From contig DATCXQ010000398.1 in assembly GCA_036565725.1 (NCBI GenBank), positions 1 to 60,378 of the forward strand: 60,378 nt of DNA. The letters run 5' to 3'. Source of the DNA: Blastocatellia bacterium. GTDB taxonomy: Bacteria; Acidobacteriota; Blastocatellia; RBC074. The first letter of the stretch is position 1. Each line of letters begins with the position of its first letter. The notes below the pieces were generated by a model. The model was not told the origin of the DNA, did not search any database, and saw only the letters and a program-made list of their open reading frames with translations. Position numbers and translations under genes: made by a program. Positions 1 through 51,671 of this stretch are shown piece by piece.

Positions 1-489
1 CCACAAATCGGCCGTGGCCGTGAATGACGCGTCCGGCGCGGGCGCCTGATATTGATTGTCGGGTTCGAGCAGCAGTATCACGCCCCAGTCGCGCCGCTCA
101 TAGTCCGCCATCAGCCAGCAGTCTTCAAATTCCTCTCTAGAGTAGACAGTCAACCCGGCCGCCGGATCCGCGATGTAAACACGATCGCCGCGAATACGAT
201 GGACGACTACATAGTGTCCATACGGCCAGAAGACGATGCACGGTAAAGGGGCCTTTTGCTTGAGGTCGTTGAACGAAATCTTGACGCTCAGGGTACGAAA
301 CCCCAGGCGCTCCGCCCCATGGGCGATGGCCGAAAGCGAACTGCCCTGCCGGTCGTGTGGACATACCTCGCGGATAAACTGCCGCGGAAACTCTCGCCCG
401 TGATACCGCGCGATCATGTCGAGACACGCCAAACCGCAATCCATCTTGTCAAGCTGATAGCTTATGGGAAAACGTTTTCGCCAAAACAT
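1..489 (-). CDS. Peptidase C39 domain-containing ABC transporter (double-glycine leader-cleaving RiPP/bacteriocin exporter); N-terminal 163 aa only, gene runs off the window
   Basis: Absent from the ORF track because there is no stop in the window. Manual minus-strand translation from ATG at 489 gives MFWRKRFPISYQLDKMDCGLACLDMIARYHGREFP...PCIVFWPYGHYVVVHRIRGDRVYIADPAAG. It carries the C39 catalytic Cys (DCGLACL), His (GHYVVV) and Asp (IADP) motifs. It starts 14 nt after the stop of the SPASM gene on the same strand. Confidence 0.8.
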   Translation of the reverse strand, partial: MFWRKRFPISYQLDKMDCGLACLDMIARYHGREFPRQFIREVCPHDRQGSSLSAIAHGAERLGFRTLSVKISFNDLKQKAPLPCIVFWPYGHYVVVHRIRGDRVYIADPAAGLTVYSREEFEDCWLMADYERRDWGVILLLEPDNQYQAPAPDASFTATADLW

Positions 490-502
490 AGCTTTTTCTG
501 AC

Positions 503-1552
503 CTACGCGGAGATTACCTCGGCGCCCTGGCTTCCTGGTTCTTTCCACTTGGCGGTATAAGGATCATAGGAACATTTTGCAGGCTTCGAATAGGGGTTCC
601 CGCTTTCACGCGTGTAAGCCCTGCAATCCGTACAGACATAACGGAACTCGCAATCACGACAGACTTCCACCTGATCCTTGGTAATCCGACTCATCTGCAC
701 CAATCGCGGATCATTCACCGCCCTCGCCAGACTGGTATGGCGGATGTTACCCAATGAATCTTTCATTGACGGACAGTGTCGGATTTCTCCGTCAGCGGCG
801 ACGCTGATCTTTTTGTTGAGACAGGTATTGAATTGCAGAGCCTCGGTGAAGTGCTCCAGGCAAGGCGAAAAAAAGGCCGGAGATACTTCGCCGCACGAAT
901 TCGGAGTCACGCGATAAGTATCAAAGACAACCGGAATCGGAAGTGATCCGGCCAGGCTCTGAGATCGGTGCGGGCTGGAATGGACGATAACCTGGGATAC
1001 CACTTGATGGCGCCGGCAGAATTCGATCAGCGAATCTGTCGTCAGTTCCGCCTGATATCCGATTATCATTTCAAGGTGGCGCAACCGCCCACTCTCCGCG
1101 GCAAGCAAGATTGTCTCCAGTTGCTCGAATGACAGCGGGTCATAGGCGCGCACCTGTACGGCCTGACATCCCAGATCTTCGAGCTGAGAGAAGATGTCCT
1201 GATAACTGTGATTTGAGCGGCTGGTGACATCGATAATCGCATTGGTCACGGCCTCAGGTCTTCTCCACGAAAGATCCAGTTCAGGGAAAAGCTCGGGATC
1301 TTCAAACCAATCTCCATAGCCTCGCTCAACGAGCAGGTTAAAATACTCATCGATGATCTCGCCGCACTGCGGCGTGAAATGCCGTTTAATCTCCGGCGCC
1401 GGCAGCCCCTTATATTCCGTGAGAATTTTGAAGAGATCATTCGGGATCAGTTGTATTCGCCAGTTCTGAAGGTCACAGATCGAGCTTCTGCGAGAACCTT
1501 TTACTGGTATGCAGTTGGCGTATAGCATGAAGATATCATCTCTTTCCTTCAT
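503..1552 (-). CDS. SPASM-domain peptide maturase of the 'grasp-with-spasm' type; no radical-SAM CxxxCxxC motif
   Basis: The C-terminus has a Cys-rich SPASM signature (NSCGE, SPCLE, NTCLN, RHCPS, CRDCEFRYVCTDCRA, AKCSY). The N-terminus begins FMLYANCIPVKG, typical of this family as I recall it. No CxxxCxxC occurs anywhere in the N-terminal 250 aa. Start moved from 1621 to the ATG at 1552, which has GGAGG 9 nt upstream. Confidence 0.75.
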   Translation of the reverse strand: MKERDDIFMLYANCIPVKGSRRSSICDLQNWRIQLIPNDLFKILTEYKGLPAPEIKRHFTPQCGEIIDEYFNLLVERGYGDWFEDPELFPELDLSWRRPEAVTNAIIDVTSRSNHSYQDIFSQLEDLGCQAVQVRAYDPLSFEQLETILLAAESGRLRHLEMIIGYQAELTTDSLIEFCRRHQVVSQVIVHSSPHRSQSLAGSLPIPVVFDTYRVTPNSCGEVSPAFFSPCLEHFTEALQFNTCLNKKISVAADGEIRHCPSMKDSLGNIRHTSLARAVNDPRLVQMSRITKDQVEVCRDCEFRYVCTDCRAYTRESGNPYSKPAKCSYDPYTAKWKEPGSQGAEVISA

Positions 1553-1734
1553 CCGGCTTGGCCTCCATTTTTCCCAGCGGCAAGGGCCTCGAGATATGTT
1601 TGTAGAAAGTGAAGCACCCATAAAAGTCCGAGCGTGCGGCGGCGCTTTTGCGAAACCTGGTTGAATATTCGGGCCGTGGCGCCTCCTCCATCATCATCAT
1701 GTGCATGGGAAGCTGCGCTTCTTCGGCGAAGTGT

Positions 1735-2760
1735 TTAGCTCGTGGGTTTTTCTGTTTCATAAAGACGGTCGGCCAGGGCTCTGGCCACTTTCTCTTCAAG
1801 AAAATAGTTACAGGGTTCCGAAACCATTCCGAATTGACCAACCGGATTGACTTCGAGAAAGACGTCGCGCCCGTCCACGGTACGAATCATGTCGATTGAT
1901 CCGGTATCGAGACGTAGAGCTTTCATCAACGACCTCAACCTGTCTTCGACCTGCGGCTGTAGTCGATAAGGGACAGTTCTCGTAGGACGATCGTATGAAT
2001 ATTTCCTGAAATCTGTCTGCGTCATGACGTTGTCTTGGGTAAACATCGCCATGCTGTAGCATTCGCCGTCCAGGTAGAAAATGCGAATCTCATATTTCTT
2101 ACGGAGTTTTTCCTGAAACAGCGAGGGGAAAGTTCCTTGCCAAGCCTCATTTACTAAAAACTCCTCCGACACGGAAGAAGTGTAGTTGGCATAGAGCTTT
2201 CCATCGAAATTACACATGAGCATCTCGGAAATCGACTTGGTGATGATCTCTCCATGTCTGGCGGCAAATCTACGCGCCTCTTCCATGCTGGTGGTCACGA
2301 TCGTCTCCGGAATGTCCAACCCCATCTCCGCAGCCAGCTTCAGCACCTGCAGTTTGTTAACGGAGGCATTCGCCGGATCACTCAACCATTTTGCGGAAGC
2401 CATGCGCGAGAAGAGAAAGTGGCTGACCCCCTGTAACTCTCGAAAGACGTGTAAATAGGTCGAGTAGATATTGGTTGCGGTCGAGTGCCCGTGATCTCTA
2501 AAGAGGTCAGCACTCCGGTATGAGTTTCTATACGCCCAGCGGCGATACCAGACCACTCTTATTTCATCAGTTACCATGGTTACACCGTCAATCGCCAGAC
2601 GATCTTTCACACCTGTATTGCCGATTGAAATTAACATGCCGCCACGGCTGTCAATATCTGACCCGTTGATCCGAATAAAGGGGACTTTCCATGACCGGAG
2701 CCAGTCCATCACCTCCTCAGTGGAGGTCTCTACCTGAGAATGACTTAAAATACAGATCAT
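1735..2760 (-). CDS. ATP-grasp peptide maturase ('grasp-with-spasm' type, graspetide-like macrocyclase)
   Basis: 341 aa. The N-terminus MICILSHSQVETSTEEVMDWLRSW resembles the pre-ATP-grasp region of RiPP ATP-grasp ligases. The C-terminus has ATP-grasp-like segments (YEIRIFYLDGECYSMAMF, FLEVNPVGQFG). It lies directly upstream of the SPASM gene. Confidence 0.75.
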   Translation of the reverse strand: MICILSHSQVETSTEEVMDWLRSWKVPFIRINGSDIDSRGGMLISIGNTGVKDRLAIDGVTMVTDEIRVVWYRRWAYRNSYRSADLFRDHGHSTATNIYSTYLHVFRELQGVSHFLFSRMASAKWLSDPANASVNKLQVLKLAAEMGLDIPETIVTTSMEEARRFAARHGEIITKSISEMLMCNFDGKLYANYTSSVSEEFLVNEAWQGTFPSLFQEKLRKKYEIRIFYLDGECYSMAMFTQDNVMTQTDFRKYSYDRPTRTVPYRLQPQVEDRLRSLMKALRLDTGSIDMIRTVDGRDVFLEVNPVGQFGMVSEPCNYFLEEKVARALADRLYETEKPTS

Positions 2761-2871
2761 AAGCGCTCATGACGATTGCTTCTCGCCGCCCTGCGCCACA
2801 CTGATATGCGCCGGCGACGCGGTTTGAAAAATAATGCAGGGTCGCTACCTCTTTATGTTGAAATGAAAATG

Positions 2872-4659
2872 TTACCCGGCGCCTTGGTTTAGCGCCCCTA
2901 AAGCTTCTTCTATCACTTCAATTTCGTATATATTCGGTTCAATTGTGACGAGACCTTCTCCGCGACGACACACGTATCTGCCGTCATCATCCTTAGTGAA
3001 CCCGGCCTGAAGGAATAAGTGTCGACAGGGTTCGTTATAGTGGGTCTCGACAATACGGCCCCAGACATCACACTTTGCCCAGCGACAATGACGTAAGACT
3101 GACACGAGGAAGACCGTCTCTACTTTGAGGCCAAGCACCCGGCAGCTCATCACGAAAGTGTCAATCTCTCCCGCTCTAATCAGGCATACGCCGACCAGTC
3201 CATAATTGGTGAATTTATCGGCCACTTCCATTGTGTAGAGTTCTGTGTCTGGAGAAGATAAGAAGGCGCGTATCGCGCTGACATCGTAAGAGGTTTGAGT
3301 AGTGTTGAATTGATGCGTCCTCCGGATTAGCTCGGCGACGCGATCCAGTTTAGCCCCAGCTCGGACAAGCGTGACACGTACTTTGATTCGCAAACTTTGT
3401 AGAAACGATCGCTCGTCGATACTCGTCCGACGTTCCTCCTCGCGACGAAGTTGCGCTTTGGTCATCGTAGTGCGCGATTGCGCTTCTTGGGTAAGAGATA
3501 CCACCTCCATGCGCGGGTCAGACAGGAGGTTATAGCGCGTGGTTGTCGAACGCGAGTCTAAGACCGTCATCTCCGGGTGAAATTGCTTAACCTCCTCGCG
3601 CTCTACAGGGTGATCATCTATGAAGATAAAGGAATCCTTCGTAAAGCCCAGCATCGATATGATCTCTCGAACGTTTTCTGATTTTCGTTCCCAATTAATC
3701 TTATGAATGACAAAGTCGTCCGGTTCGAGAATGTAATTAAAGCCATAAGATTTGGCGGACGTTGCCAATTCGGCCCAAGGACCAATAACATTTTCCTGAG
3801 TGTTCTTACTGCATGACGCCAATAGGATTCCTTTCTCTTTTGCAAGTTTCAGCGCCTCATGCAATCCTCCGAATTCCGACATGGCCATCTCCAAAACATT
3901 AATTTGCTGCTTCCCATTTCCGATCTCTCCCGGCCAAAGTGTGTTATCTAAATCGGTGATGATGCACTTAATCCTTCCTCGCCCAGTCCACATCCTGAAG
4001 ATATCGAGATATTCCATGGCCATCACCACTAACGGTTTGTGATTTAACGGAGACCGTTCAGTGGTCAGGTTGTAAGGCTGAGCGCCCATGTAGTTCACAT
4101 AAGCCCCCGGGGAGTAATCCAGCAGTTGTCGCTTACCCAAGTTAGCGAATATCCGTTCTTCGTCGATGAAGAATGCGTTGGGGTTATCGCGAATCAGATT
4201 GCAGATGTGCTCGTTAACCTCAAATAGTATCCGCCTATAACTTACTTCCGAACGAAATTCCATTCTCCCACGGGGAAGGAGGGGTGGGCCGGCAAGTCCC
4301 TGTACAAGTATGAGACGCCCCGAAGACTTTGACAGAGCTGCTTGAATCGTAACAGTCAGATAGTCTTTAATCGCTTCGACTCGTTCTAAACGAGACGCCT
4401 CATCAATGACGGCCGAGGTATCCCAAAGTGGATTCAGTACGTTAATATTCCATGGGTACAGGATAATGATATCGGATGAATGTTGATCTATAACGTCTAA
4501 ATCCTTCGCGGTAACAGCGACTCCATCTACCGTTATTCCCTGCGAGGAAGCAACCTTCTTCAACACCTCCAATCGACGCGCCGCAAGGCAATCGGCGAGC
4601 ATCACCACACAGAGAGAATAATTATCGGCGCCCGATATTTTGTCTGTTTTGGCGGTCAT
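2872..4659 (-). CDS. FkbH-like HAD-IIIC phosphatase-family protein with C-terminal GNAT-like acyltransferase domain
   Basis: The HAD motif I context CIITDLDNTLWPGEIG and later FIFIDDHPVEREEV are typical of the FkbH/HAD-IIIC subfamily. The C-terminal ~140 aa (NYGLVGVCLIRAGEIDTFVMSCRVLGLKVE) look GNAT-like. Start set at the internal ATG at 4659 (MTAKTDKISG); the ORF track starts at 4746. Confidence 0.65.
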   Translation of the reverse strand: MTAKTDKISGADNYSLCVVMLADCLAARRLEVLKKVASSQGITVDGVAVTAKDLDVIDQHSSDIIILYPWNINVLNPLWDTSAVIDEASRLERVEAIKDYLTVTIQAALSKSSGRLILVQGLAGPPLLPRGRMEFRSEVSYRRILFEVNEHICNLIRDNPNAFFIDEERIFANLGKRQLLDYSPGAYVNYMGAQPYNLTTERSPLNHKPLVVMAMEYLDIFRMWTGRGRIKCIITDLDNTLWPGEIGNGKQQINVLEMAMSEFGGLHEALKLAKEKGILLASCSKNTQENVIGPWAELATSAKSYGFNYILEPDDFVIHKINWERKSENVREIISMLGFTKDSFIFIDDHPVEREEVKQFHPEMTVLDSRSTTTRYNLLSDPRMEVVSLTQEAQSRTTMTKAQLRREEERRTSIDERSFLQSLRIKVRVTLVRAGAKLDRVAELIRRTHQFNTTQTSYDVSAIRAFLSSPDTELYTMEVADKFTNYGLVGVCLIRAGEIDTFVMSCRVLGLKVETVFLVSVLRHCRWAKCDVWGRIVETHYNEPCRHLFLQAGFTKDDDGRYVCRRGEGLVTIEPNIYEIEVIEEALGALNQGAG

Positions 4660-4843
4660 TCTAGTTTGTCCCCAATGCGGAGGTTTTGAAGTAACTGCCG
4701 CGTTGTAACCTTTCGACCGGCAATGATTAGTGAAAAGCCGTACCATGCGATTATTAGCTCGCGGCCGTCGCTGAGGTATGTCATAGCTGCGTCAGCGGCG
4801 ATTTAGCGGTCAATTCGGCCGTCTCTGACCACGATTATCAATT

Positions 4844-4874
4844 GCGCACCCTGATCTTTACGATCAGGATGCGC
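4844..4874 (-). terminator. Hairpin 25 nt downstream of the precursor stop codon; possible attenuator or partial terminator between precursor and enzyme genes
   Basis: GCGCACCCTGATC-tttac-GATCAGGATGCGC forms a 13-bp stem with one mismatch. No clear U-tract follows on the minus strand, so at most a weak or partial terminator or an RNA-stabilising stem. Confidence 0.3.
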
Positions 4875-4898
4875 ATATGATAGCTAGGGGAACATCAA

Positions 4899-5099
4899 TT
4901 AGAACTCGTAATCGACGTCCGCATCCACCTGCGGGTTGAAACCGCCGTTATCGTTGGTGGCGACGAAACTACTGGCGCTCCCGCTGAGTTTGGGCTTTCC
5001 TCCGACGATCCATGAAGCATCTTCCAGATCAAAGGAGTTGAACATCTCACTATTAATACTTTCGAGTTCTCCGCGATTTACTGTTTCTTTCTCTTTCAT
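4899..5099 (-). CDS. RiPP precursor peptide with double-glycine leader (66 aa)
   Basis: MKEKETVNRGELESINSEMFNSFDLEDASWIVGG | KPKLSGSASSFVATNDNGGFNPQVDADVDYEF. The ATG at 5099 is preceded by AAGGA 7 nt upstream. The acidic, helical-looking leader ends in IVGG. The core is rich in Lys/Ser/Thr and Asp/Glu. It is the first gene of the operon that ends in a C39-ABC exporter. Confidence 0.65.
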   Translation of the reverse strand: MKEKETVNRGELESINSEMFNSFDLEDASWIVGGKPKLSGSASSFVATNDNGGFNPQVDADVDYEF

Positions 5100-5309
5100 G
5101 TGATTTCCTTTCATTTGTTGACGGCCGGCAAAAAGCCGCGCCATGCGATTACCCCGGCGCCAGAGCAGAAGTCAGTGACATCCTATGTCGCTGACACCCT
5201 GCAGTCGGAAAAACTCTGACCAACAGGTAGGCCTCATTTTCTACGACTAACACCGGGCCTTGATTACTGAGGCGCATTCACTTTATAGCACTGACTCATT
5301 CTGATTTCC

Positions 5310-5345
5310 TTGATAAATCGCAACCCCGCGCTTGATAAATAGCAA
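5310..5345. promoter_or_regulatory. Two FNR/CRP-like boxes (TTGAT-N4-xxCAA), 22 bp apart, upstream of the precursor gene
   Basis: TTGATAAATCGCAA (5310-5323) and TTGATAAATAGCAA (5332-5345). Each has one perfect TTGAT half-site and a 3/5 or 4/5 match to ATCAA. The centre-to-centre spacing of 22 bp is two helical turns. They lie between the Crp/Fnr gene stop and the precursor start. Confidence 0.35.
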
Positions 5346-5352
5346 GCCCTGA

Positions 5353-6021
5353 CTACTCTCCAGCTTCCTGAAGTAGCTTCTCGAGGTTAGTTACTATAAT
5401 CCACCCGCGCTCTTGCTCAATTACCTCTTTCTTTGCCAGCTCTGCCAGGAGCCGGCTTAATTGCTCGGGCCGGACTGCCAAAAGACCGGCTATATCGGTC
5501 TTCTTGAGAGGAATATGTATTCTGATTTTGCCATTCGAATGCGGAATACGCGGTGAAATGTGTCTTAACAGGTAGCTGGCGAGACGTTGGCGAGATGAGG
5601 CCGCCCCGAGCCAGGCGTGCCGTATAACCTGCTCACATGAGTATTTGCTGACGAGTCTAAGTAGGGATTTCGTTAAATCAGGCTCTTGCTCAACGAGTGT
5701 AAGAAACAGGCGCGTGTTCAAACTAATCGCAGAACATGTTGTAAGTGTAGTAGCAGTGACGGTGGCCGGGAGCTGGCTTAAAACTGACGTTATTCCCAAA
5801 ATTTGTACGGCCTCGGCGATTTCGATAACTACCTCGTTGCCACAATATTCCGTGCGAGCCATCTTTACCTTGCCTTCTTCCAGCAAGTATACGCCTCCAA
5901 TTATCTGCTCCTGTCGGAATATTTCTATATTAGGCGGAAATGTATGTAACACGCCGTGTGACCGTATAATATCAAAAGCGGTGTGGCTGTTTTCCTGGGT
6001 AGGCATACCTTCTTTCATCAA
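5353..6021 (-). CDS. Crp/Fnr family transcriptional regulator
   Basis: It has an N-terminal cNMP-binding-like beta-roll (GGVYLLEEGKVKMARTEYCGNEVVIEI) and a C-terminal HTH (KKTDIAGLLAVRPEQLSRLLAEL). Confidence 0.8.
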   Translation of the reverse strand: MMKEGMPTQENSHTAFDIIRSHGVLHTFPPNIEIFRQEQIIGGVYLLEEGKVKMARTEYCGNEVVIEIAEAVQILGITSVLSQLPATVTATTLTTCSAISLNTRLFLTLVEQEPDLTKSLLRLVSKYSCEQVIRHAWLGAASSRQRLASYLLRHISPRIPHSNGKIRIHIPLKKTDIAGLLAVRPEQLSRLLAELAKKEVIEQERGWIIVTNLEKLLQEAGE

Positions 6022-6086: not shown

Positions 6087-6530
6087 GGTCTAAACTGTTT
6101 TGCCACATTTTCGGAATCGTCGGATCATGCCCTGCGTTTTCATGCAAGTTCACTCTCAGTCGGTTCGCATCCAGGCCGTACATAATTGTTCAATGCTTCT
6201 TGAAATCTTAAGGCGCCGTCAGGGGCAACCACGGTGTACTGAGCCAGGCGAATGTCCGCTCCACCACCCGGCGTCGGGCTAACATAAGAAAGCCTTTCAT
6301 GCCTCCCGGGCGTTTGACGATCTCCAAATCGATCTGTGAGGTTGATGTAAAAGATGGCGTTAATGGTCAGACGCATATCAGTTTGATGCTTCCGTCCTTC
6401 GGGTTTCGCGGCTGAGATCAGGCCGTTGATATACTTCCGTTCTGGGTCGGTCAGGTCGCTCAAGTAAAGTTGGTGGCTAACCCCGCTATACTATCAAGGC
6501 CGACCGAGACTTCTAAAACACGCTCTAGAC
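6087..6530 (-). mobile_element. Internally deleted IS5-family insertion sequence remnant
   Basis: Imperfect terminal inverted repeats: GGTCTAAACTGTTTTGCCACATTTTCGGAATCG at 6087-6119 versus the reverse complement of 6501-6530 (GTCTAGAGCGTGTTTTAGAAGTCTCGGTCG). They enclose fragments of a transposase ORF. Confidence 0.4.
6140..6463 (-). pseudogene. IS5-family transposase remnant (N-terminal ~37 aa joined out of frame to a C-terminal fragment)
   Basis: The N-terminus [37 protein letters not shown] resembles IS5-family OrfA starts. A second frame further downstream reads [11 protein letters not shown], the conserved IS5-family C-terminal motif. The whole catalytic core is missing. Confidence 0.45.
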
Positions 6531-6676: not shown

Positions 6677-7325
6677 ATTGATGTAGGCTGGGTCAGCGCT
6701 CCCGCCCCGCAAAGGTGTCAGGATCTGGGGCCACGCCAATGGCAAAGCGGTGCGCCACGTCCGTGACGAGAACTTGCGGCGGGTCCGATCAAGATTCAAA
6801 TTGTAAGGCGCAGCCCCGGCGGTTTTGGGCAGCGAGACGCTCCGGCTGTAAGCAATCCCGACCACTAAGAGCGCCAAGTTCCCCAGGCGCAACTTAAGCC
6901 CTTTACTCGACCTGGTATTGCTCGTGATAGTCCGACGCCGCTTCGCTCAATATTATTTCCCCGCAGATGGCTCACATGCATGATATTATCCCGCCGTGCG
7001 GTAACGGCCACCATCTGCCTGCTTAGTCTCTTAACCTTCGGCGATTTCCTCGACCACCGTCGGCTCGATGCCAGGCGAGTCAATCCGTTTTTGCATGCCC
7101 GATGTCATACTCATACACTAATACAGGCGTCGTTTATTATCCGAAATGCTAACGCAGATGAAATATTCTTTGGTACAACTCTGGGACAGACGAAGGTGAT
7201 TAAGGGGTAGATGTAGAGTTTCTTGGCCTGTGTCAGTTTTTTTCGTCTGTTCGGTAATCCTCTTGCCTCCCTGGCTAAAAAGTATTTGGGCTTTTTACTC
7301 GGATCAGGCGACACTGGATGGTTTT

Positions 7326-8031
7326 ATGTCAGTTTCCTCCCCACAGGAGATCACGCAACTGCTAGTCGCCTGGAACAAAGGCGATCTGAAGGCTCTGGAA
7401 CAGCTCACGCCTTTGATCCACACAGAACTTCATCGCCTGGCCAAACGCCATATGGCGGGCGAACGCCCCGGTCATATCCTGCAAACCACGGCGTTGGTCA
7501 ATGAGGCCTACCTGCGGTTGATTAACTGGCGGAACGTCGAATGGCGGGACCGCGCCCATTTCTTCGGCCTGGCGGCTCAAATCATGCGGCGCATCCTGGT
7601 CGATTTCGCCCGCGCCCGGCGGCGCGAAAAACGCGGCGGCGAGGCCTTGCGCGTTCCGCTGTCGGAAGCGGACAAAGTCGGTTACGAGAGGAACGCCGAC
7701 CTTGTGGCGCTGGATGACGCGTTGCAGGCGTTGGAGAAGCTAAATCGAACCACACAAGATTGGGACACGGTACAGTACCGCGCGCGTAAGCAAGCGGTTG
7801 ACCGCGTGATGCGCCGCTTGCTTACGCGCGCGGTACTGTACCAATCGTACGTGGCTTGATTTAGACGCGCGACAGGCCCGCGTGGTGGAACTGCGATTCT
7901 TAGCCGGACTTAGCTATGAAGAGACGGCCGAAGCGCTCGAGGTCTCTGTCGGCACGGCGCGCCGTGATTGGAGCATCGCTCAGGCGTGGCTCTTCCGCGA
8001 GTTGAGCAAGGGGGGAAGTGATGACGCCTGA
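7326..8031 (+). pseudogene. ECF sigma-70 family factor (type normally paired with a Ser/Thr kinase), interrupted by a MITE
   Basis: Regions 2-3 are intact from the ATG at 7326 (MSVSSPQEITQLLVAWNKGDLKALEQL...TALVNEAYLRL...ALQALEKL). Region 4 (DARQARVVELRFLAGLSYEETAEALEVSVGTARRDWSIAQAWLFREL) continues in a different frame from 7864. The two parts are separated by a 121-bp insertion. Confidence 0.8.
7743..7861. mobile_element. 119-bp MITE (long imperfect palindrome) with TA target-site duplication, inserted in the ECF sigma gene
   Basis: Flanking TA at 7741-7742 and 7862-7863. Termini are AATCGAACCACACAAGATTGG and CCAATCGTACGTGGCTTGATT (16/21 complementary by eye). Inner perfect arms are GGTACAGTACCGCGCGCGTAAGCAAGCGG and CCGCTTGCTTACGCGCGCGGTACTGTACC. 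Removing 121 bp restores GAG AAG CTA GAC GCG = EKLDA in frame. Confidence 0.75.
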
Positions 8032-8242
8032 GAGGCGCCGCAAAATCTGCGATCTCTATCACTCGGCTTCGGAGCTCGCGCCCGCCGAGGGCTCGGCCTT
8101 CCTTGACGAGGCCTGCGGCGGCGATAGGGCAAGCGCCATTGTGAGCATAGCAATCAGCCAGTGTCAGGAGTCCTTCTGCGCCATTCGCACGCCCTCATCA
8201 ATCATCTTCACCAACTTCTCGACCGAGGTCGCTTCGCAATAA
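8021..8242 (+). pseudogene. Remnant of the sigma-associated Ser/Thr kinase or anti-sigma partner (N-terminal ~40 aa only)
   Basis: MTPERRRKICDLYHSASELAPAEGSAFLDEACGGD matches the conserved N-terminal segment of kinases encoded after this ECF type. The start overlaps the sigma stop (GTGATGA). Similarity is lost after about 40 aa, and the ORF runs antisense into the 3' end of the phosphohexomutase gene. Confidence 0.4.
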
Positions 8243-9588
8243 ATCCTCAACAGAGGCTCGGTACCCGATTGCCTGAAGAGGATCCAGCTATCGTCCTCGA
8301 AGATCAGCTTCGTCCCGTCGAGCGCCGCGACGCTCGCGACCTTGTGTCCGGCGAAGCTGCCCGGCGTATTCTCTCGCAAGTCGCTGACCAGCTTCTGGCC
8401 CGCTTCGATGGGCACATGCAGATCGCGCCGCTCGAAATGGAATTCGCCGAACTCGCGCCAGATGTCGCGCACGATCTCGGAAGGCTTCTTGCCGGCGGCC
8501 AGCACGGCTTCGAGCAGGAGCAGGCAGTTAAGGATTCCGTCGCGTTCGGGAATGTGACCGCGCACGCCTATTCCGCCCGACTCTTCGCCCCCGACCAGGA
8601 AGTCGTTGGCCGGGTCGAGCATGATCTCGCCGATGTGTTTGAAGCCGATCGGCGTCTCGAAGAGCCGGAATCCGTAGCTCTCGGCAATGCGGCGCACAAT
8701 CACCGATTGCGAAAAAGTACGCGCGACCGAGCCCTTCCACCCTTTTCGCCTGACCAGGTGCAGCAAGAGAATCATCAGGATCTGATGCGTGTTGACGTAT
8801 TCGCCGCGCTCGTCCATCGCCCCCACGCGGTCGGCGTCGCCGTCGGTTATCAAAGCCAGCAGCGCGCCGCGCTCGCGGATCACGCGCGAGGTCAGTTCCA
8901 GGCTCCACGGCATGGGCTCGGGCAACACTCCGCCGAAGAGCGGGTCGCGATCGGCGCGGATGGTTTCGACGCGGATCTTGCCGCCGGCGAGCATCGATTC
9001 GATCCAACGGCCACCCGAGCCGTGCATCGGATCAGCGATGACCAGCGCATCGGCTTTGCGAAGATCATTGATCGCCACCAGGCTCTCGACATGGCTCCGA
9101 TAATCACCGTCGGCTTCAATGACCTTGGCCAACCCCTTCCCCTGCGCTTCGTCGAAAGGCAGGCGCCGGGGCGCGGTCGCGCCGAGGAGTTTCTCGATCT
9201 GGTCGGTGATCGCGGGAGTGGCCGAACCGCCGTAAGGGGCCTTGAATTTGAAGCCATTGAAATCGGGCGGATTGTGCGACGCCGTGATCATCACGCCGCC
9301 GTCCAGCCCGCGCCGCTTGACTTCGAATGAGACCAACGGCGTCGGGACGTCGCTCGCAAACAGATCGACGGCGACGCCATTGCCGGCAAAAACCTCCGCC
9401 GCGCGCCGCGCAAACAATTCAGAAGCGAACCGGCGATCGTAACCAACGACCGTTCGCAGTTCGCCGCCCGCGTTTTGAGTCCTCAGATAATCGACCAGCG
9501 CCTGCGTAACGACCTCGACATTCGCAAACGTGAAGTCTTCGGCGATACGGGCGCGCCATCCATCAGTGCCAAATTTGATCACAGTCAT
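8164..9588 (-). CDS. Phosphomannomutase/phosphoglucomutase (alpha-D-phosphohexomutase family)
   Basis: MTVIKFGTDGWRARIAEDFT; active-site TASHNPPDFNGFKF; metal loop TDGDADR; GEESGG sugar-binding loop. Confidence 0.85.
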   Translation of the reverse strand: MTVIKFGTDGWRARIAEDFTFANVEVVTQALVDYLRTQNAGGELRTVVGYDRRFASELFARRAAEVFAGNGVAVDLFASDVPTPLVSFEVKRRGLDGGVMITASHNPPDFNGFKFKAPYGGSATPAITDQIEKLLGATAPRRLPFDEAQGKGLAKVIEADGDYRSHVESLVAINDLRKADALVIADPMHGSGGRWIESMLAGGKIRVETIRADRDPLFGGVLPEPMPWSLELTSRVIRERGALLALITDGDADRVGAMDERGEYVNTHQILMILLLHLVRRKGWKGSVARTFSQSVIVRRIAESYGFRLFETPIGFKHIGEIMLDPANDFLVGGEESGGIGVRGHIPERDGILNCLLLLEAVLAAGKKPSEIVRDIWREFGEFHFERRDLHVPIEAGQKLVSDLRENTPGSFAGHKVASVAALDGTKLIFEDDSWILFRQSGTEPLLRIYCEATSVEKLVKMIDEGVRMAQKDS

Positions 9589-43309: not shown

Positions 43310-43603
43310 TACAATCTCCTTCCTTAATTCTCCGCCGAGCATATTCGGCGAATGCAAAATTGACGGATTTCGAGAACTGAATCGGTAGGTCTAGCTTTTT
43401 TCCCAGCAAAGCCAACAGCGGGAGCGGCGAACGGGAATTGAACCTCCCCCCATCGCCGCGATTTCTTGCCGTTGTTCCGGACGAGGTTTTGCGATAGATT
43501 GAACCGGGCTTACAATTTCCGCCTCTCTTTTCAACCTAATTTCTAACTCGCTCCCTGTTAGGGGCGACAGTGCGCCAAGCGCGGGGCATAAGTCTTTCCG
43601 AAG

Positions 43604-43653
43604 TTTGGGAATTGGTTTGGCAAATTTCTGGGAAAATTTTGGCAGAGTTTTGG
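43604..43653. promoter_or_regulatory. Five TTTGG-containing direct repeats at ~11-bp phasing, in the divergent TBDR/regulator intergenic region
   Basis: TTTGG (or TCTGG) starts at 43604, 43616, 43627, 43638 and 43649, giving spacings of 12, 11, 11 and 11. The last repeat ends 19 nt before the regulator ATG at 43672. Confidence 0.4.
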
Positions 43654-43671
43654 CAAAGTTCTTCCGTCCCT

Positions 43672-45942
43672 ATGAAGCAGTCAGACAAGCACTTCTACGA
43701 ATTCGGGCCCTTCCGGCTGGATACTGCCGAGCGGCTGCTCTTGCGCGACGGCCAGCATGTCCCGCTGACCCCGAAAGCCTTCGAGACATTGCTGATCCTG
43801 GTCGAAAACTGCGGGCGCGTGATTGATAAGGACGAGTTGCTCAAGAAGGTCTGGCCGGACACCTTTGTTGAAGAAGTGAATCTAGCCAAAAACGTTTCCT
43901 ACCTGAGGAAGATTCTGGGCGGAGAAGAAGCCGCGCAATACATCGAGACGATTCCCAAACGGGGCTACCGCTTTGTCGTAAGCGTGAAGGATGTTTGCGA
44001 TGAGAGCGCGGGGCCGGTGTGGTCGCATCCTGCGGATGCGGGCGTCATTGACCGGGAAGAAACGGAAAAGAACGACTCCGATTCCGACTCGGGGCCGTGG
44101 CTGAGGCCGATTGGGAATGGGGCGCTTCCTCTGCTTGGGAATGAGAAGCTTCCTCCGCCGACCAAGCCGCGCGCGAGACATTGGGGGTGGTTGGCGGTTT
44201 GGCCGGCGCTGGGGTTAACGCTCGGAGTCGCAATCTGGGCGACTTTTTTTCGCCCTGCCAAAGAGTCCCCGACTCCGCTTTTGAACATCGGTCCATTCAC
44301 CAGTTTTCCGGGCCAGGAAAGGCAGGCCGCTTTTTCGCCCGACGGCAACCAGATCGCCTTTGTCTGGGACGGCGGGAAGGGAGACAATCCCGACATCTAC
44401 GTCAAGCTGATCGGCGCGGGGCAGCCGCTCCGACTGACGACACATCCGGCGGACGACACGCATCCGGTTTGGTCGCCCGACGGCCGTTACATCGCGTTCT
44501 TCCGCCAGGCCGCCGAAGGCAGCGGCTTTTATTTGATCCCGGCCCTGGGCGGGACCGAGCGTAAAGTGGTCGATGTGTTCCCTTACCGAGACCCATTCCA
44601 GGGAAACAGCCAATATGTGGCGCCGGACGGAAAGTTCCTGGCTGTGGCTGACAAGAATGCGCAGGAAGAGCCTCTCAGCATCTACCTGGTTTCGATTGAG
44701 ACCGGGGAAAAACGGAAAGTGACCGCGCCCTCCACGGGCGCCGCCGGGGATTCTTATCCGGCCTTTGCGCCGGACGGAAAGACGCTGGCCTTCGTTCGCT
44801 CTTCCAGCCGAGCGACCACAGACCTTTATCTCTTGAGTCTGGACAGCGGCGCGACACGGCGACTCACGTTTGATAACACTTCGATACTGGGCCTCGCCTG
44901 GACTTCGGACGGTCGCGAAATCGTCTTCGCCTCAAGGCGAGGCGGCAGTATTTATAGTCTCTGGCGCATCCCGGCCGCCGGCGGAACGCCCGAACGCCTG
45001 CCAATCATCGGACAGAGCGTGGTCAGCCCTGCTATTTCCCGACAAGGCGCCCATCTGGCATATACCCAGACCCTGGATGATCAGAACATCTGGCGCCTGG
45101 AATTGGACGCGGCGGGCCGGGCCGGAGCCGCGACGAGTTTGATTTCTTCTACACTGGACGATAACGGGCCAGACTATTCTCCCGATGGCCGGAAAATCGT
45201 CTTCGCCTCCAATCGCCCCGGCGGCTTTGGGATATGGGTCTGCGATCGTGACGGGGCGAATCCGGTTCAATTGATCGATCGCGGGCCATATCTGACCGGC
45301 ACACCGCGCTGGTCTCCAGACGGACGATGGATCGCATTCGATTCGCGATCTAATGACGCCGGCCATGAGGGCAACGCTGACGTCTACGTCATCAGCGCCG
45401 AAGGCGGCCATCCCCGACGTCTCACCAGTGATCCGGCCGAAGACATCACCCCGAGTTGGTCGCGTGACGGAAAGTGGATCTACTTCGGCTCCACGCGTAG
45501 CGGCGGCATGCAAATCTGGAAAGTTCCCGCCGAAGGCGGCCAGGCGACGCAGGTGACCGAACAGGGCGGCTTTGAAGGCTTCGAATCAATGGACGGAAAG
45601 CAGTTATATTACGCGAAAGGCCGGTCGGTTCCCGGCATCTGGCAGAAGCCGGTGGCCGGAGGCGCAGAGACGCTGCTGTTGGATCATCACAAAGCGGGCT
45701 ATTGGCGCTTCTGGGCGGTGACCCCAAAAGGGATCTACTTCGCCACGGCTAATGAGCCTGCTCACCCGATCATTGAGTTTTTCAACCTCGCGACCAGCAA
45801 AGTGACGACGATTGCTACGTTGGATAAACCACTCTCGCCATCTGAACCAGGCCTGACCGTCGCGCCAAATGGACGCTCGCTACTCTTTGCGCAAAAGGAT
45901 CAAAGCGGCAGCGATCTTATGTTGGTAGAGAACTTCCACTGA
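43672..45942 (+). CDS. Transmembrane transcriptional regulator: OmpR/PhoB/CadC-type winged-helix DNA-binding domain + TM + periplasmic TolB-like PD40 beta-propeller
   Basis: FYEFGPFRLDTAERLLLRDGQHVPLTPKAFETLLILVEN...IETIPKRGYRF (trans_reg_C); one TM (WLAVWPALGLTLGVAIWATFF); many PD40 repeats (P.WSPDGR.IAF). Confidence 0.8.
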   Translation: MKQSDKHFYEFGPFRLDTAERLLLRDGQHVPLTPKAFETLLILVENCGRVIDKDELLKKVWPDTFVEEVNLAKNVSYLRKILGGEEAAQYIETIPKRGYRFVVSVKDVCDESAGPVWSHPADAGVIDREETEKNDSDSDSGPWLRPIGNGALPLLGNEKLPPPTKPRARHWGWLAVWPALGLTLGVAIWATFFRPAKESPTPLLNIGPFTSFPGQERQAAFSPDGNQIAFVWDGGKGDNPDIYVKLIGAGQPLRLTTHPADDTHPVWSPDGRYIAFFRQAAEGSGFYLIPALGGTERKVVDVFPYRDPFQGNSQYVAPDGKFLAVADKNAQEEPLSIYLVSIETGEKRKVTAPSTGAAGDSYPAFAPDGKTLAFVRSSSRATTDLYLLSLDSGATRRLTFDNTSILGLAWTSDGREIVFASRRGGSIYSLWRIPAAGGTPERLPIIGQSVVSPAISRQGAHLAYTQTLDDQNIWRLELDAAGRAGAATSLISSTLDDNGPDYSPDGRKIVFASNRPGGFGIWVCDRDGANPVQLIDRGPYLTGTPRWSPDGRWIAFDSRSNDAGHEGNADVYVISAEGGHPRRLTSDPAEDITPSWSRDGKWIYFGSTRSGGMQIWKVPAEGGQATQVTEQGGFEGFESMDGKQLYYAKGRSVPGIWQKPVAGGAETLLLDHHKAGYWRFWAVTPKGIYFATANEPAHPIIEFFNLATSKVTTIATLDKPLSPSEPGLTVAPNGRSLLFAQKDQSGSDLMLVENFH

Positions 45943-47990: not shown

Positions 47991-51671
<3,681 letters not shown>

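Follow-up and report, generated by a model that had tools for sequence, protein, structure and literature searches.

A predicted grasp-with-spasm graspetide operon with an FkbH-like gene in an acidobacterial chromosome segment

Gene content of the locus

The first 6,021 nucleotides of a 60,378-nt stretch of DNA from a Blastocatellia bacterium (contig DATCXQ010000398.1; the whole stretch is referred to here as the window) carry a minus-strand operon for a peptide made on ribosomes and modified after translation (RiPP), in which genes for an ATP-grasp maturase and a SPASM-domain protein are combined with a precursor peptide, an exporter and an FkbH-like enzyme. With a probability of roughly 0.8, we consider positions 1-6021 to hold a RiPP cluster of the grasp-with-spasm kind (graspetide group 14) on an Acidobacteriota chromosome, more exactly its two-thirds next to the promoter. 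A preliminary description, made from the sequence alone, had listed six minus-strand open reading frames (ORFs), each of which was recovered in the window at the coordinates given; as an operon, however, the list was incomplete, having overlooked an LPL-family gene (1536-1760), the hairpin behind the precursor gene and at least four conserved genes past the window edge. In transcription order, the features are as follows:

5353-6021, minus strand: Crp/Fnr regulator (Pfam cNMP_binding, 49 bits, and HTH_Crp_2, 58 bits, both above cut-off)
4899-5099, minus strand: precursor peptide, 66 aa (ORF and Shine-Dalgarno-like motif)
4844-4874, minus strand: RNA hairpin (folding energy and compensatory changes)
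2872-4659, minus strand: FkbH-like protein, 595 aa (TIGR01686, TIGR01681)
1735-2760, minus strand: ATP-grasp maturase, 341 aa (TIGR04192)
1536-1760, minus strand: LPL-family small protein, 74 aa (gene callers on related contigs, tblastn, C-terminal motif)
503-1552, minus strand: SPASM-domain protein, 349 aa (TIGR04193)
1-489, minus strand: exporter N-terminus, 163 codons with C39 domain, running off the left window edge (Pfam Peptidase_C39)

An operon with an identical ATP-grasp protein was found on nine metagenome contigs, and the full operon together with its downstream genes is present in the related loci L090, L091, L092, L093 and L129 as well as on a 19-kb contig.

Class membership and distribution

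Both maturases score above the cut-offs of curated equivalog models. The ATP-grasp protein reached 272.1 bits against TIGR04192 (trusted cut-off 230), with residues 4-329 of 341 aligned, and the SPASM-domain protein 299.2 bits against TIGR04193 (cut-off 175), which bears out the initial assignment to a grasp-with-spasm operon of the graspetide type. Further matches of the ATP-grasp protein include the microviridin-type models MvdC (158 bits) and MvdD (127 bits). Overall, the searches with profile hidden Markov models (HMMs) returned the families expected at the outset, i.e., grasp-with-spasm ATP-grasp and SPASM, FkbH/HAD-IIIC and Peptidase_C39. Both genes are on one strand, with the SPASM gene downstream at a distance of 182 nt, and they are adjacent in 76 of 80 genome loci, i.e., wherever the sequence reaches far enough. 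Gene order proved to be conserved across phyla as well: the succession of ATP-grasp gene, small ORF and SPASM gene was seen in essentially all 80 loci from Acidobacteriota, Gemmatimonadota and Bacteroidota, so that a chance arrangement is impossible.

The class is known as graspetide group 14 (Carter et al., 2026, PMC13097080) or as ATP-grasp branch 5 (Makarova et al., 2022, PMC8939145). Group 14 comprises 1,643 predicted biosynthetic gene clusters (BGCs), with TIGR04193 in ~100%, TIGR03796 in 35%, HlyD in 33% and TIGR04139 in 23% of them (Carter et al., 2026, PMC13097080). Being a member of a catalogued class, the locus is not the undescribed system that it had first been taken for. The accompanying statement that no natural product of the class has been characterized is in line with the searchable literature, in which no paper on such a product was found.

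Altogether, 2,679 homologues of the ATP-grasp protein were detectable. The closest named ones belong to Pyrinomonadaceae, Blastocatellia, Thermoanaerobaculia, other Acidobacteriota and Longimicrobiaceae, while those of Bacteroidota show ~40% identity. Acidobacterial examples, of which the preliminary description knew none, are in fact numerous, with hundreds of homologues in metagenome-assembled genomes (MAGs) of Acidobacteriota and the label “grasp-with-spasm system” in NCBI and JGI. Branch 5 has been treated as Bacteroidetes-specific, with Acidobacteria unmentioned (Makarova et al., 2022, PMC8939145); the acidobacterial clade is thus known to databases and essentially undescribed in the searchable literature.

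Precursor peptide and adjoining hairpin

The 66-aa double-glycine (GG) precursor was confirmed at 4899-5099. It consists of the leader MKEKETVNRGELESINSEMFNSFDLEDASWIVGG and the 32-aa core KPKLSGSASSFVATNDNGGFNPQVDADVDYEF; its ATG at 5099 is preceded by an AAGGAA Shine-Dalgarno-like motif, and an alternative ATG lies upstream at 5144. The leader belongs to a family with the consensus MKE(K/N)ET..ELESINSE(L/M)F.SFD(P/L)(E/D)(E/D)ASW(I/V)(I/V)GG, members of which are encoded upstream of the ATP-grasp gene in L010-L013, L090-L092, L097, L103, L129 and L130. This family recurs in all acidobacterial loci of close or moderate relatedness, many of which have 2-6 copies, and an exhaustive phmmer search yielded ~17 short representatives after clustering at 50%. 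In one Acidobacteriota MAG (L012, 8256-9958), six tandem precursor genes share a common leader and have differing cores. Existing family models did not capture the precursor, as NCBIfam gave no match at E ≤ 0.01 and Pfam none even at E ≤ 1; the described precursor models TIGR04139, TIGR04149 and PF14406 are among those not matched. Since TIGR04139 occurs in just 23% of the group 14 BGCs, a described precursor model is not obligatory for membership.

The cores are hypervariable and share a common layout, in which the N-terminal strand carries alternating Ser/Thr, the C-terminal strand carries alternating Asp/Glu and a final aromatic residue, and the turn between them is rich in Gly/Pro/Asn. In characterized graspetides, such a layout yields ring-within-ring hairpin crosslinks (Carter et al., 2026, PMC13097080). 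The window core offers K1, K3, S5, S7, S9, S10, T14, D16, D25, D27, D29 and E31, i.e., five Ser/Thr, two Lys and five Asp/Glu residues.

Directly after the precursor stop codon, the hairpin at 4844-4874 forms a 14-bp core stem with a minimum free energy of -31.4 kcal/mol (z = -6.9), and 0 of 200 shuffled sequences folded equally well. In L090, L091 and L092, each precursor gene likewise has a hairpin behind it, and the stems of L091 and L092 show compensatory A-U to G-C and C-G to U-A changes. This element probably serves as an intra-operon attenuator or mRNA stabilizer, setting a high ratio of precursor to enzymes. A scan of promoter and terminator consensus sequences showed no excess over shuffled sequence.

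A small LPL-family protein between the maturase genes

The additional gene at 1536-1760 overlaps the stop of the ATP-grasp gene by 26 nt and the start of the SPASM gene by 17 nt. It is called by gene finders on related contigs, and tblastn detected homologues at the same position with 44-53% identity in L010-L013, L028, L097 and L103 and with 40% identity in L107. The window protein carries the motifs LPM...FYKHISRPLPL. When the longest ORF between the ATP-grasp and SPASM genes was extracted from all loci (n = 81), a C-terminal (F/Y/H)xK(P)IS(K/R) motif was present in 65 of the 81 small ORFs, compared to 1.5% of shuffled sequences, and most of them also featured an N-terminal LP(L/M/V) motif. 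The ratio of nonsynonymous to synonymous substitution rates (dN/dS) of the gene against L090 is 0.15. Although no curated HMM exists that would match the protein, by position and motif it is assigned to the LPL family described by Makarova et al. (2022, PMC8939145), who proposed that this family acts as a PqqD-like chaperone or ATP-grasp-binding element.

Exporter, regulator and genes beyond the window edge

The frame from 489 to 1 is free of stops, contains the catalytic-Cys motif DCGLACL and matches Pfam PF03412 (Peptidase_C39) with 116 bits (E = 1e-33); its best NCBIfam match is TIGR03796, the NHLP-type export ABC transporter. On contigs carrying the identical operon, the complete exporter comprises 730 aa with C39, ABC_membrane and ABC_tran domains and fits the architecture of a peptidase-containing ABC transporter (PCAT). 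The C39-peptidase exporter originally recovered by hand translation is therefore confirmed, by its C39 domain in the window and by the full PCAT on the matching contigs.

According to related contigs, the rest of the exporter is followed past the window edge by a 143-182-aa protein with a predicted membrane segment (180 aa; P180), which succeeds the exporter in every cassette where it was seen. Further downstream are an ADOP-family duplicated permease (MacB-like, 807 aa, TIGR03434 with 767 bits) and a 371-aa HExxH protein, joined in the window's own clade by an M16 peptidase. The HExxH motif is invariant in six orthologues, and the protein scored 36.1 bits against TIGR04267 (cut-off 40; E = 6e-9). 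Since alpha-ketoglutarate-dependent HExxH enzymes are established RiPP tailoring enzymes (PMC12636437), a hydroxylation step by this protein is plausible.

At the head of the operon, the Crp/Fnr regulator was verified by its cNMP_binding and HTH_Crp_2 domains, and it holds the same position in L090, L091, L092 and L129. In clusters of more distant Acidobacteriota, L097 (12-1304) and L103 (344-1507), a sigma-54-dependent AAA+ activator is found upstream of the precursors in place of the Crp-type regulator.

The FkbH-like protein and its origin

The FkbH-like protein (595 aa, or 624 aa from an alternative start at 4746) has three domains: an N-domain resembling SGNH/FkbH_N, a phosphatase domain of the HAD-IIIC type and a C-domain that is GNAT-like. 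It scored 204 bits against TIGR01686 (cut-off 147) and 59 bits against the HAD-IIIC model TIGR01681 (cut-off 36), and its C-domain aligns to the PF00583 (GNAT) match of the homologue P0099. The proposed HAD-IIIC/GNAT assignment hence stands, with the GNAT-like C-domain backed by homology. The motifs D236-L-D238-N-T (DLDNT) and S505-C506-R507 are invariant in 39 FkbH homologues. By sequence, the protein matches PDB entry 3SLR (BF1531; E = 1e-19), and in an AlphaFold2 model with a predicted local distance difference test score (pLDDT) of 87, the N-domain and the HAD domain superpose on 3SLR with a template modelling (TM) score of 0.71.

In FkbH and OzmB, the HAD domain dephosphorylates a 1,3-bisphosphoglycerate-derived unit on the C-domain Cys, which is then transferred to an acceptor; work on OzmB reportedly identified this Cys as acyl or glyceryl carrier. 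In the operon described here, neither its own genes nor those of its relatives have PP-binding or polyketide synthase (PKS) domains recorded, and an unannotated acyl carrier protein (ACP) gene would not fit into the intergenic gaps of 111, 240 and 254 nt. In comparison with L090, the dN/dS of the FkbH gene is 0.16, while the ATP-grasp and SPASM genes have values of 0.18 and 0.11, respectively. The FkbH-like protein is thus probably a genuine accessory tailoring enzyme under purifying selection and, given this dN/dS value and the intact motifs, less likely a pseudogene or passenger.

In the window, the FkbH gene comes after the precursor gene and before the ATP-grasp gene. It has this position also in L090 (ATP-grasp protein 88% identical) and in L092, whose copy, from a long-read assembly, looks frameshifted; the gene is retained at 88-93% identity in L090, L092 and P0001. 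Three other close relatives, L091, L129 and L130 (ATP-grasp proteins 79-83% identical), lack it and are otherwise collinear with the window operon. None of the 80 genome loci has an FkbH gene within 10 kb, a count that excludes proximal copies only, as the copy of the L097 type lies 16 kb from the ATP-grasp gene and past the flanks of these loci. FkbH is also not among the co-occurring families of the 1,643 group 14 BGCs (Carter et al., 2026, PMC13097080). As a rough upper bound, ~10 FkbH clusters at ≥55% identity compare with ~60 ATP-grasp clusters at ≥54%. FkbH as a general feature of the class was consequently rejected, on account of the 80 loci, the co-occurrence table and the three close relatives; it is a lineage-restricted addition, and its place inside the operon is confined to a narrow subclade.

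Outside the window clade, the closest FkbH homologues (P0003-P0009) show 62-66% identity. In the three that were checked (P0004, P0006 and P0008), FkbH ends a string of genes for an ADOP permease, an HExxH protein, proteins of 268, 358 and 1,340 aa and a Sulfotransfer_4 protein; in L008, an ATP-sulfurylase/APS-kinase gene comes next after FkbH. In L097 (WUUC01241164.1), this string stands directly after a complete cassette of precursor, ATP-grasp, LPL, SPASM, PCAT and P180 genes on the same strand, where FkbH is 66% identical to the window protein and the other shared genes 47-70%. The same junction of cassette and string is seen in L011 (15164-21005) as far as the locus extends, and L007 starts with a P180 homologue. 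The resulting supercluster of ~18 kb (L097, 1742-19939) was also observed in L006-L009 and L011; its 1,340-aa protein has no detectable domain and the 268- and 358-aa proteins are family-less. Its gene content suggests sulfated and acylated graspetide derivatives as products. Since the identity of FkbH (66%) falls within the range of the other shared genes, an ancestral supercluster is the simplest history. The window lineage would then have dropped the large proteins and the sulfotransferase while keeping FkbH, ADOP permease and HExxH protein, with FkbH relocated beside the precursor.

The contexts of more distant homologues with 35% identity were mixed or uninformative: one locus is from Myxococcota, one is a secondary-metabolite locus of Streptomyces, and in one a radical SAM/SPASM gene adjoins. 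In the latter (L128, 6998-10166), a canonical radical S-adenosylmethionine (SAM)/SPASM gene (332 aa) is followed after 4 nt by the FkbH-like gene, and a 52-aa ORF is nearby; this is possibly another pairing of FkbH with peptide-maturase machinery.

An alternative option, which we regard as doubtful, is that FkbH is the remnant of a neighbouring module for a different molecule, comprising the ADOP permease, the HExxH protein, the 268-, 358- and 1,340-aa proteins, the sulfotransferase and FkbH itself, and that a rearrangement deleting the rest of this module left FkbH inside the graspetide operon. The sulfotransferase and the 1,340-aa protein next to P0004, P0006 and P0008, the ATP-sulfurylase/APS-kinase gene of L008 and the distance of 16 kb in L097 would fit such an origin, as would the close relatives that lack FkbH and its missing from the families that co-occur in group 14. 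The presumed other module is itself tied to graspetide clusters, however, being contiguous and co-oriented with the grasp-with-spasm cassette in L097 and L011 and beginning right after the P180 homologue in L007. Moreover, the window lineage kept only FkbH, ADOP permease and HExxH protein of the module, FkbH is sited between the precursor and ATP-grasp genes, and its purifying selection equals that of the maturases (0.16 vs. 0.18 and 0.11). Judged from this linkage and selection, a functional link of FkbH to the peptide is favoured.

The SPASM-domain protein

The ORF of the SPASM-domain protein is open back to 1621, and the family model and gene callers put its start at 1552. Two SPASM domain models were matched above cut-off (PF13186, 30.9 bits; TIGR04085, 32.9 bits). 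In an alignment of 77 family members drawn from the retrieved loci, the SPASM-set residues Cys 244, 260, 298, 301, 307, 310 and 327 are conserved to 92-100%; the set also lists Cys 220. Within the first 150 residues, neither the window protein nor any of the 77 members has a CxxxCxxC motif, and no radical-SAM model of Pfam or NCBIfam matched the N-domain. At the level of the motif, it was thus right to call the protein “radical-SAM-less”. An AlphaFold2 model (pLDDT 81) places a beta/alpha partial barrel ahead of the SPASM domain. Its best fold matches in the PDB are SuiB, CteB and SkfB (E = 2e-7 to 9e-4), with a TM score of ~0.35 that is low because the domains are arranged differently; by sequence, no relative was found in the PDB. 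On the basis of this model, the predicted fold descends from radical SAM enzymes.

This ancestry raises the question whether the protein could itself be a radical enzyme, in which a non-canonical site of C14, C26 and C129 binds a SAM-cleaving [4Fe-4S] cluster and installs a C-C or C-O crosslink. The three residues come from different parts of the barrel, are widely conserved (96, 82 and 77% of the 77 members) and are invariant in the 40-sequence acidobacterial/Gemmatimonadota set used for modelling. The radical-SAM-like barrel with its matches to SuiB, CteB and SkfB points in the same direction, and non-canonical cluster motifs exist in ThiC, HmdB and Dph2. With CxxxCxxC in no family member and an N-domain unmatched by radical-SAM models, we nevertheless consider such a chemistry unlikely.

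Sactipeptide-like Cys thioethers were rejected as the product of the SPASM protein in the window clade: no conserved Cys was found in the precursor cores of the acidobacterial clade, so that sactipeptide-type chemistry is not its function there.

Genomic setting

The GC content is 49-52% in positions 1-6000 and 56-61% elsewhere in the window (7500-60378), which makes the cluster a compositional island; the chromosome segment around it is otherwise ordinary and encodes, e.g., UvrA, a PQQ dehydrogenase and sensor kinases. At the far boundary of this island, a 107-aa ORF (6140-6463, minus strand) shows a weak match to the N-terminus of an IS4/5-type transposase (DUF4096, E = 2.7e-4, under the Pfam cut-off). 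At the same boundary, a gene for an extracytoplasmic function (ECF) sigma factor (PF07638) is broken into two ORFs, one of 209 aa (7230-7859, plus strand) and one of 49 aa with region 4 (7882-8031, plus strand); the identical split is called on the 19-kb metagenome contig, and it reflects either a frameshifted pseudogene or a sequencing error. A 389-aa ORF (8161-9330, plus strand) is antisense to a phosphoglucomutase-family gene (8164-9588, minus strand), whose phosphoglucomutase domains were seen on the 19-kb contig, and is probably a spurious shadow ORF of high-GC sequence. Two large TolB-propeller/S9-peptidase-like proteins are encoded at 43570-45942 (plus strand) and 47991-51671 (minus strand); with 124 and 92 bits against the lasso-peptide isopeptidase model (cut-off 400), these are probably generic enzymes of the prolyl-oligopeptidase family.

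Discussion

The cluster is real and correctly classified, and it belongs to a class that is catalogued, automatically annotated and experimentally uncharacterized. A role of its ATP-grasp and SPASM genes in primary metabolism or protein modification, e.g., RimK-like glutamylation or cofactor maturation, instead of a secreted RiPP was rejected as highly improbable, as the weak similarity to the RimK family (28 bits) is outscored about ten-fold by peptide-maturase models above their curated cut-offs (272 bits for TIGR04192), and the leader-GG precursor family and C39 exporter share the operon in many lineages. The better fit to primary-metabolism families that had been named as a reason to abandon the assignment was accordingly not seen.

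Graspetide chemistry proceeds via ATP-dependent formation of an acyl-phosphate on Asp/Glu, which is captured by Ser/Thr/Lys (summarized in Carter et al., 2026, PMC13097080). In the proposed pathway, the ATP-grasp enzyme would phosphorylate the alternating side chains of D25, D27, D29 and E31 in the C-terminal half of the core, and these activated residues would be joined to S5, S7, S9, T14 or to K1 and K3, so that omega-ester or amide bonds form the rungs of a ladder-like hairpin. A second, chemically undefined modification would be added by the SPASM protein, for which the LPL protein probably serves as adaptor; this step can neither rely on a canonical SAM cluster nor, given cores that lack a conserved Cys, yield a Cys thioether. 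The PCAT would finally cleave after GG and secrete the 32-residue product. The more speculative part of this explanation concerns FkbH, which could load a small acyl unit on the invariant Cys506, either glyceryl from 1,3-bisphosphoglycerate or an acyl-CoA-derived unit, and transfer it to the peptide. Such an acylation of the peptide appears most likely because of the analogy to FkbH/OzmB and because no ACP is encoded. The full proposal, i.e., that FkbH needs no carrier protein and itself passes a glyceryl or other small acyl group straight to a ribosomal peptide, on a graspetide scaffold that also bears the SPASM/LPL modification, is put forward tentatively.

Several points weigh against this explanation. 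The FkbH gene of L097 is located 16 kb from the ATP-grasp gene, beside the sulfotransferase and the 1,340-aa protein, and may therefore belong to a separate module, and more distant FkbH homologues are found in unrelated contexts. No residue separates the cores of clusters with FkbH from those of close relatives lacking it, so that the acceptor site cannot be named. The HExxH protein stays just under the TIGR04267 cut-off (36 vs. 40 bits), and the pattern of crosslinks, the reaction of the SPASM protein and the substrate of FkbH are all inferred.

As far as the sequences tell, new here is a lineage-specific variant of the class, defined by the acidobacterial precursor family, the in-operon FkbH-like enzyme and the ADOP and HExxH accessories. 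Group 14 is among the largest graspetide groups (1,643 predicted BGCs), with its products and the reaction of the SPASM protein lacking the SAM motif unreported, and very few secondary modifications of graspetides have been listed so far (Carter et al., 2026, PMC13097080). A literature search retrieved no paper on an FkbH-type enzyme acting in a RiPP pathway; if true, carrier-free acylation by FkbH would be a novel type of RiPP modification taken from the biochemistry of polyketide extender units. Sister clusters, in which FkbH stands beside a sulfotransferase and a gene for synthesis of 3′-phosphoadenosine-5′-phosphosulfate (PAPS), hint at graspetides that are both acylated and sulfated. The operon is compact, featuring one precursor with one core and a clear GG site, and sister operons with and without FkbH are available at 79-88% identity. 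It thus represents a convenient system for studying the role of SPASM and LPL proteins, peptide acylation by FkbH and the use of such peptides by soil Acidobacteriota. The practical gain would be a new enzyme activity and a new scaffold, and no new biological principle.

Comparison with known systems

Compared to other grasp-with-spasm systems, the operon shares the passing of both equivalog cut-offs, the neighbouring and co-oriented ATP-grasp and SPASM genes, the LPL-family gene immediately upstream of the SPASM gene, the NHLP-type C39-ABC exporter and a double-glycine leader precursor with a core rich in Ser/Thr and Asp/Glu. In the literature, however, the class is Bacteroidetes-specific, often with Cys-rich precursors (TIGR04139 with CxxCx5CxxC, PF14406), whereas the host is an Acidobacteriota member here and the precursor stems from a different, unmodelled family without conserved Cys. 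Instead of an HlyD gene, which was not seen here, the 180-aa protein, the ADOP permease and the HExxH protein are present, and the FkbH-like gene is inserted in the operon.

Plesiocin and thuringinin, hairpin omega-ester graspetides of groups 2 and 3, resemble the window precursor in the core, where a Gly/Pro/Asn turn links the Ser/Thr-rich strand to the Asp/Glu-rich one. They differ in the ATP-grasp subfamily; moreover, the window core is single and not repeated, SPASM and LPL partners are obligatory, and the connectivity is a predicted one. With the radical SAM/SPASM RiPP maturases SuiB, CteB and SkfB, the SPASM protein has in common the predicted overall fold and the full C-terminal set of SPASM Cys residues for two auxiliary [4Fe-4S] clusters. 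In contrast to these enzymes, the whole window family is missing the CxxxCxxC motif of the SAM cluster and has no fused RiPP recognition element, in place of which the separate LPL protein may serve.

Finally, the FkbH-like protein is comparable to the FkbH/OzmB glyceryl-ACP enzymes and to BF1531 in its TIGR01686 match, the intact HAD-IIIC DxDxT motif, the invariant Cys of the SCR motif and the superposition on BF1531. Whereas FkbH and OzmB belong to PKS pathways, no ACP or PKS is encoded nearby in the window, so that the acceptor would have to be the peptide, and the gene is positioned between a RiPP precursor and an ATP-grasp maturase.

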